Virus record (IMG/VR): IMGVR_UViG_2529292906_000021
Source: a virus
Lineage: Duplodnaviria; Heunggongvirae; Uroviricota; Caudoviricetes
Length of the DNA: 33,633 nucleotides
Strand: one strand, 5' to 3'
The position numbers and the translations under genes were made by a program. Under the pieces are notes generated by a model that was not told where the DNA came from, made no database searches, and was given only the letters and a program-made list of their open reading frames with translations. Shown here piece by piece: positions 9,212 through 9,866 of this stretch (position 1 is its first letter; each line of letters begins with the position of its first letter).

Positions 9212-9343
9212 AGGCTATAAACCGACTAACAACTAAATACTGAAGATTTAAATCAGAAACGATTTTTATTAAATCCTTAACCGGAGGGATTCCTGCACCC
9301 TCAAATCATCAGGAGGCCGCCCGAAAGGGCGGTGGAGATAATA

Positions 9344-9577
9344 ATGGGAATAACTAAAGAACGATTGTTGGAAATAGCAAACCTTAGTGATTGGGCATTA
9401 AGTGATGAGAGAATTGTTTCTCCTCATGCTTATGAGTCAGTTACAAGTATAGAAATAACAACAATGGCTAGAATGCTGCTTGGTTATTTCAAAATAGAAA
9501 ATAAAAAACAGATGGATAGTAATGTTGATATATGTGAGATTTTAGACGATTGGGGGGGCTTGGGTTGTGGCTGGTAA
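9344..9577 (+). CDS. Hypothetical small protein (AT-rich island)
   Basis: ATG at 9344 with GGAG about 9 nt upstream (ORF frame opens at 9332); ends just after a G7 homopolymer tract (9552-9558). Confidence 0.4.
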   Translation: MGITKERLLEIANLSDWALSDERIVSPHAYESVTSIEITTMARMLLGYFKIENKKQMDSNVDICEILDDWGGLGCGW

Positions 9578-9866
9578 TAGTTCTATTGATTGGCAGGAAA
9601 TAGCTGATAAATATAAAAATGTTGTTCCTCATGGTAAAAAATCACGTCGTCAGTGCAGCAATGATGAAGGGCGAATTATTGACATTAGTATCCTTATGTT
9701 AGAAAGATATAAGCAACAAGAATATGAGTTAATTGTTGCTCATTTCGTGATTGGTTTATCTCTTCGTGCTATTGCAAAGCAACAAGGATGTTCAGATGGA
9801 ACAATTCGTAAAAGATTGCAAAAAGCCTTAGGTTTTTTGACTGGATATATAGCAATTACCAGTTAA
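9567..9866 (+). CDS. Small protein with sigma-70 region-4 / LuxR-like C-terminal HTH
   Basis: GTG start inside the overlap with the previous ORF; C-terminus …LSLRAIAKQQGCSDGTIRKRLQKALGFL… resembles a region-4 type HTH; lies in a different frame from 9344-9577 immediately after the G7 tract. Confidence 0.4.
   Translation: MAGNSSIDWQEIADKYKNVVPHGKKSRRQCSNDEGRIIDISILMLERYKQQEYELIVAHFVIGLSLRAIAKQQGCSDGTIRKRLQKALGFLTGYIAITS

Follow-up and report, generated by a model that had tools for sequence, protein, structure and literature searches.

The two overlapping, out-of-frame open reading frames (ORFs) between positions 9344 and 9866 of the window, the whole 33,633-nt stretch of Caudoviricetes DNA analysed here (IMG/VR record IMGVR_UViG_2529292906_000021), are a single predicted Q21-family antiterminator gene that is cut in two by one extra G. 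We consider it highly probable (about 0.85) that the split is a recent, lineage-specific frameshift, by which an accessory Q-like gene, located in the early region of a Rac-like lambdoid prophage, has become a pseudogene. A reading of the letters alone (hereafter the sequence-only reading) had offered three explanations for the arrangement; of these, a recent frameshift pseudogene of a regulator is the one favored by the relatives, nearly all of which carry one G less and are intact, while a programmed frameshift is unsupported and phase variation is weakly possible, though unsupported as well.

Layout of the split gene

The homopolymer at the center of the locus is a run of seven G on the plus strand (GGGGGGG, 9552-9558; G7), the site of a +1 G insertion relative to the G6 of its relatives. 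The upstream ORF (9344-9577, plus strand, 77 aa), starting from ATG 9344 or GTG 9332 and preceded by the SD sequence GGAG 6 nt 5' of the ATG, terminates at TAA 9575-9577, with the stop 17 nt past the tract; the downstream ORF (9567-9866, plus strand, 99 aa) starts from GTG 9567 in the +1 frame. This geometry is just as the sequence-only reading had described it. Deletion of one G from the tract yields a single ORF spanning the whole gene (9344..9866, plus strand), which across the junction reads ...ILDDWGAWVVAGNSS... (also written ...CEILDDWGAWVVAGNSSIDWQ...); the fusion claimed from the letters thus stands, although its product is 173 aa long and not approximately 180 aa. The proposed -1 slip, in turn, holds as the loss of one G from the DNA and fails as a slip of the ribosome, which would have to shift by +1.

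The upstream ORF begins with a clade-specific N-terminal extension of approximately 56 aa, continues into the first part of the Q core, and finishes out of frame with GLGCGW; on its own, it matches phrog_3323 and no Pfam family. Two-thirds of the Q core, on the C-terminal side, fall to the downstream ORF, which carries a helix-turn-helix (HTH) resembling sigma region 4 and lacks both helix H1 and the WGAW motif. The tract itself is statistically ordinary: no other G/C run in the window reaches 7, and dinucleotide shuffles produce 4.4 such runs on average, so that there is no enrichment. Its significance lies in its position and in the comparison with homologues.

Two hairpins precede the gene: one, CCGCCC-GAAA-GGGCGG (9316-9333), lies directly 5' of the SD and start, and the other, GAGGG...CCCTC, approximately 30 nt further upstream. 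Both are kept in alleles with different upstream genes; they show no covariation, and their folding z-score is not significant. An Rfam scan returned no match at 9200-9900.

The fused protein is a long-form relative of phage 21 Q

The fused protein matches the Pfam family Phage_antitermQ (PF06530) with 108.2 bits (cutoff 26; E = 3e-31), its residues 62-171 covering profile positions 3-112 of 118, and phrog_79, 'anti-termination protein Q-like', at 1.4e-33; the downstream ORF alone still matches PF06530 at 1.4e-24, covering profile positions 18-112 of 118 only. The HTH that had been likened to sigma region 4 is borne out by a match to Sigma70_r4_2 (E = 5e-6), nested within the much stronger PF06530 match, and the expectation that fusion would restore a genuine HTH protein is fully confirmed by near-identical loci, where the tract is G6 and a 173-aa 'antiterminator Q family protein' is annotated. 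The match extends to phage 21 Q itself (PDB 6JNX and 6P18; E = 5e-4), where residues 67-145 align to Q21 residues 20-99 and the junction LDDWGAWV, which spans the G tract, is aligned to LELWGAWV. Read in the G6 form, the tract supplies the codons TGG GGG GCT for Trp70-Gly71-Ala72, the first three residues of WGAW. None of 39 aligned homologues departs from W70, G71 or W73, and at least 90% of them keep A72. Helix H1 of Q21 is part of the contacts between two bound protomers, and the segment directly after it forms the RNA-exit 'torus' (10.1101/651190); the frameshift parts H1 from the remainder of the protein. An AlphaFold2 model of the fused protein, based on the 39-sequence alignment, is too poor for fold comparison (pLDDT 45.6, pTM 0.31).

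Homologues fall into two classes. The long forms (170-185 aa), found in E. coli and Salmonella and predominant in the protein database, share the conserved N-terminal extension of approximately 56 aa; the short forms (113-127 aa) start at the position of the long-form Met57. Searched against phage genomes with tblastn, the fused protein recovers the core only (residues 62-171), in annotated Q antiterminator genes of Stx and other lambdoid phages; the late Qs in the phage genome collection are all of the short-core kind, none being a long form with the N-terminus seen here. The short-form late Qs of enterobacterial lambdoid and Stx phages (approximately 113-127 aa, QuuD-like) are 54-59% identical to the fused protein over roughly residues 57-173 in the multiple alignment and have the same invariant residues; they differ in their start at the Met57 position and in their canonical late site, next to lysis or Stx genes.

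The gene thus resembles phage 21 Q in its PF06530 domain, the WGAW helix, and the C-terminal HTH, and differs from it, and from the short late Qs, in the conserved N-terminal extension. It further departs from phage 21 Q in location, lying in the early region between a DUF977 gene and convergent cargo genes; instead of directly preceding a late promoter, a terminator, and late or lysis genes, it is followed by the convergent cargo operon and hok/sok. The intact reading frame typical of the family is absent from the window, where it is split into the ORFs of 77 and 99 aa, and, again unlike in phage 21, the prophage carries a separate late Q. This canonical late antiterminator (16258-17079; PF03589, 5e-51), which has a zinc-finger-like CXXC region and lies downstream of RusA, belongs to another family, so that the prophage encodes Qs of two unrelated families; control of the late genes would fall to this second Q. 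No candidate for the direct 8-bp repeats of a Q-binding element, with their sigma-dependent pause site, came to light; the scan for consensus promoters was uninformative.

Intact relatives and the G7 lineage

This allele, at 99.7-99.9% identity, recurs in eight complete E. coli genomes; the tract is G6 in all of them, and seven of the eight have an intact, annotated 522-nt (173-aa) CDS for an 'antiterminator Q family protein'; the eighth, O145 RM9154-C1 (L003), keeps G6 and is frameshifted elsewhere, by A6 to A5 at 9636-9641. A second allele, approximately 83% identical, has G6 in 17 of 19 complete-genome copies and G7 in the remaining two. In yet other alleles, the Gly71 codon makes no homopolymer: the tract region reads TGG GGA GCC in L006 and L007 and TGG GGT GCC in the Salmonella loci L019-22. 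It is thus the motif that is conserved and not the tract, and since these alleles do without it, the tract is not under selection. The same preponderance of intact copies is seen on contigs, where the exact fused 173-aa sequence occurs on 297 and a close variant on 783, as compared to 9 for the exact 77-aa G7 fragment; among the cluster members listed, intact 173-aa forms are found on at least 1,200 contigs. Overall, intact G6 copies outnumber variants by roughly 50:1, and G5, G7 and G8 variants make up approximately 2-3% of copies. The frameshifted arrangement is thus not conserved, nearly all homologues being in frame; homologous loci, to which the sequence-only reading had looked for a decision, provide fused-frame homologues in plenty, and two separate conserved genes are not the rule among them.

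Nine further loci share the G7 of the window: two NCTC, two DEC and two TPA assemblies, plus three contigs from gut metagenomes, named in MEGAHIT style. In a 4.2-kb alignment, the combination 12028T/12236T/12381C is common to the window and seven of these nine, and is found in none of six G6 loci; within the G7 group there is a single SNP, at 10498, and one member has a different cro gene call upstream. At all variable sites examined, the window agrees with L014. Across at least 10 assemblies, the G7 haplotype has persisted stably and without reversion, and the occurrence of the same G7 on one private haplotype marks it as a real, inherited mutation of single origin and not an assembly error. 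Neither ORF has decayed further in this lineage, whose internal divergence is very small, and continued use of the products is conceivable. The 99-aa product is an unreliable marker of G7, for L013 has this gene call with a G6 tract and an A5 frameshift elsewhere.

Recurrent indels in the G tract

Changes in tract length are found on six backgrounds or more: three with G7, two with G5 and one with G8. Besides the G7 of the window's lineage, they comprise G7 on two different haplotypes of the second allele (L008, L028), G5 on an E2348/69-like background (L031) and on a 2013C-3181-like background (L032 and L033, which differ by one SNP), and G8 on an N51-like background (L030); some of the variant assemblies have further single-base indels within the alignment, and errors may be present in them. 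The G tract is thus a recurrent indel hotspot, and it has two counterparts in the same gene, both on the plus strand and both intact here. At the A6 run at 9503-9508, A5 is found on two backgrounds and A7 elsewhere (products P0138, P0143, P0139), and L013 lacks one A; at the A6 run at 9636-9641, A5 is found in L003, where the gene is annotated as 'frameshifted', and product P0146 is a further instance of an indel. Since these two runs show equivalent indels, the G run is a mutational hotspot, and not a special one.

Origin of the split and alternative explanations

The course of events proposed for the frameshift is simple. The run of six G in the functional allele is a chance product of the codons TGG GGG GCT; in an ancestor of the window's lineage, replication slippage would have extended it to seven, the run lengths being observed and the slippage being the presumed cause. 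The extra G ends the frame after 77 codons and leaves a remnant of 99 codons in the +1 frame. Separated in this way, with H1 and the WGAW motif missing from the remnant, the products would have lost their function. The change, a heritable one in the DNA, has been passed on stably, which would make the gene a recent pseudogene; at best, the allele may be leaky, should occasional slippage, or reinitiation at GTG 9567, provide some product. Single-base indels that repeatedly hit three homopolymers of this gene in other strains represent the usual route by which weakly selected prophage genes decay.

The unlikely alternative that the tract is a contingency locus, in which slipped-strand mispairing reversibly sets the paralogue to on (G6) or off (G5, G7, G8) and thereby produces mixed prophage or cargo expression, draws on the same variants: natural isolates have G5, G6, G7 or G8 in their DNA, spread over four or more haplotype backgrounds of this allele, G7 arose twice independently in the second allele, and every variant observed breaks the frame. 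Tract indels on at least six backgrounds are indeed more than a purely random pseudogenizing event suggests, and are compatible with a reversible switch of low rate. The locus also shares with the poly-G contingency loci of Campylobacter, Neisseria and Haemophilus a poly-G tract within the ORF that varies in length between isolates and sets the frame. It is unlike them, however, in that the tract is short and not conserved between alleles, in that one length predominates (the approximately 50-fold excess of G6), and in that the variant is stable in its lineage. Classical poly-G switches usually have 8 or more residues, compared to the 6 or 7 here, and E. coli is proficient in mismatch repair; further, the run is missing altogether from the GGA and GGT alleles, the G7 haplotype shows no reversion in at least 10 assemblies, the A6 runs of the same gene undergo equivalent indels, as plain mutational bias predicts, and sequencing error may account for some of the variants, whose assemblies show single-base indels elsewhere in the alignment. 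A more specific version, in which an early-region Q21-like antiterminator is switched reversibly, at low frequency, by the G run and the intact protein governs transcription through or into the adjacent convergent cargo hotspot, is highly improbable; were it true, slippage of the tract would give rise to prophage populations with mixed cargo expression or lytic read-through. No relevant publication on antitermination in Rac-like prophages, or describing a homopolymer switch for this gene, emerged from the literature search.

Sequencing or assembly error could have produced the same picture from a genome that is truly G6, since homopolymer indels are the commonest error of 454 and long-read assemblies, and several related assemblies have other 'frameshifted' genes nearby. 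Such an error would, however, have to recur in at least nine other independent assemblies, short-read metagenome contigs among them, and to coincide with the identity of the window to L014 at all variable sites examined, which makes an artefact very improbable. It is hardly credible, finally, that full-length protein is made from the G7 allele by programmed recoding, whether through +1 ribosomal frameshifting or through slippage of RNA polymerase. As in genes with a programmed +1 frameshift, such as prfB, there are two overlapping ORFs, both otherwise intact, whose fusion needs a +1 shift, and judging from the sequence, a P-site tRNA-Gly on GGG could re-pair on the GGG of the +1 frame. Unlike in genes of the prfB type, however, few relatives have the split arrangement, which is not conserved, and other alleles lack a homopolymer altogether; the shift site, TGG GGG GGC TTG, offers neither an in-frame stop nor a rare or slow codon, the codon that follows it being GGC; and no SD-like stimulator, downstream structure, or known +1 signal was identified around it. 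Transcriptional slippage, for its part, normally needs longer runs of A or T. Programmed recoding is rejected on these grounds: the need for a +1 shift, the absence of a slow codon, stop or SD stimulator, and the lack of conservation of the split.

A recent frameshift pseudogene, as the preferred reading, has little consequence beyond annotation: the two ORFs are to be described as one frameshifted 'antiterminator Q family' pseudogene and not as two genes. Current NCBI annotation handles such cases both ways, presenting the A-run copy in L003 as one frameshifted gene and the G7-split copies of the second allele as two separate genes. The gene family is already annotated and the finding is ordinary; it exemplifies how a chance run arising from conserved codons (TGG GGG GCT) becomes a site of repeated inactivation in prophage genes. 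Independently of the frameshift, the intact long-form Q paralogue of the early region, beside a variable cargo slot, may merit a functional look.

Genomic context

Upstream of the Q-like gene, the window contains, in this order, a putative HTH regulator (cro-like by position), ydaT, an HTH replication gene, and DUF977; downstream, it contains the convergent three-gene cargo, hok/sok, a pair resembling RmrT/RmrA, DUF968, RusA, the PF03589 Q, a methylase, tRNAs, and lysis and packaging genes. The cargo operon (9863..12019, minus strand) matches phrog_9664, phrog_11490 and phrog_12777, all of 'unknown function'; its three proteins have no match in Pfam or NCBIfam and a marginal one only in PADLOC (PDC-S54, E = 0.002, to the 234-aa protein). 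Nothing in the analysis pointed to control of this operon by the Q-like gene, which the sequence-only reading had considered. The stop codons of the Q-like gene on the plus strand and of the last cargo gene on the minus strand overlap by 4 nt (9863-9866) with no terminator between them, so that the convergent transcripts must overlap. A consensus promoter and terminator scan of 8800-12700 yielded no informative site near the Q-like gene.

The order of DUF977, the long Q21-family gene (plus strand), a variable cargo of two to three genes (minus strand), and hok/sok (plus strand), which occupies 8234-12365 of the window, is kept in Rac-like prophages of E. coli and Salmonella (L006-L008, L019-L029), and the cargo sets differ among related loci; the slot between the Q-like gene and hok looks like a hotspot for cargo or defence-type genes. 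A perfect 10-bp palindrome, TGCGTACGCA, lies at 12086-12095. It is found once in each of 29 related loci (L001-L029), always 55-85 nt 5' of the gene that opens the minus-strand cargo, despite four different sets of cargo genes; it looks like an operator. The idea that it is the site bound by the Q-like protein was rejected as unsupported, the binding element of Q21 being a direct repeat.

Beyond the cargo, a pair of genes at 12682-14435 matches PADLOC RmrT (7.5e-10) and RmrA (5.5e-102), the second protein combining an HTH with an M78 peptidase in the manner of the 'spr1629 family repressor/antitoxin' type. Rfam assigns the sok/hok region to 12190-12365 (plus strand), the DicF sRNA to 4546-4597 (minus strand), and three tRNAs to 18753-18999 (plus strand); two copies of STnc100 (19078-19268 and 19546-19755, plus strand), also assigned by Rfam, lie upstream of a gene for a 617-aa SASA-esterase (nanS-p-like) at 19978-21831.
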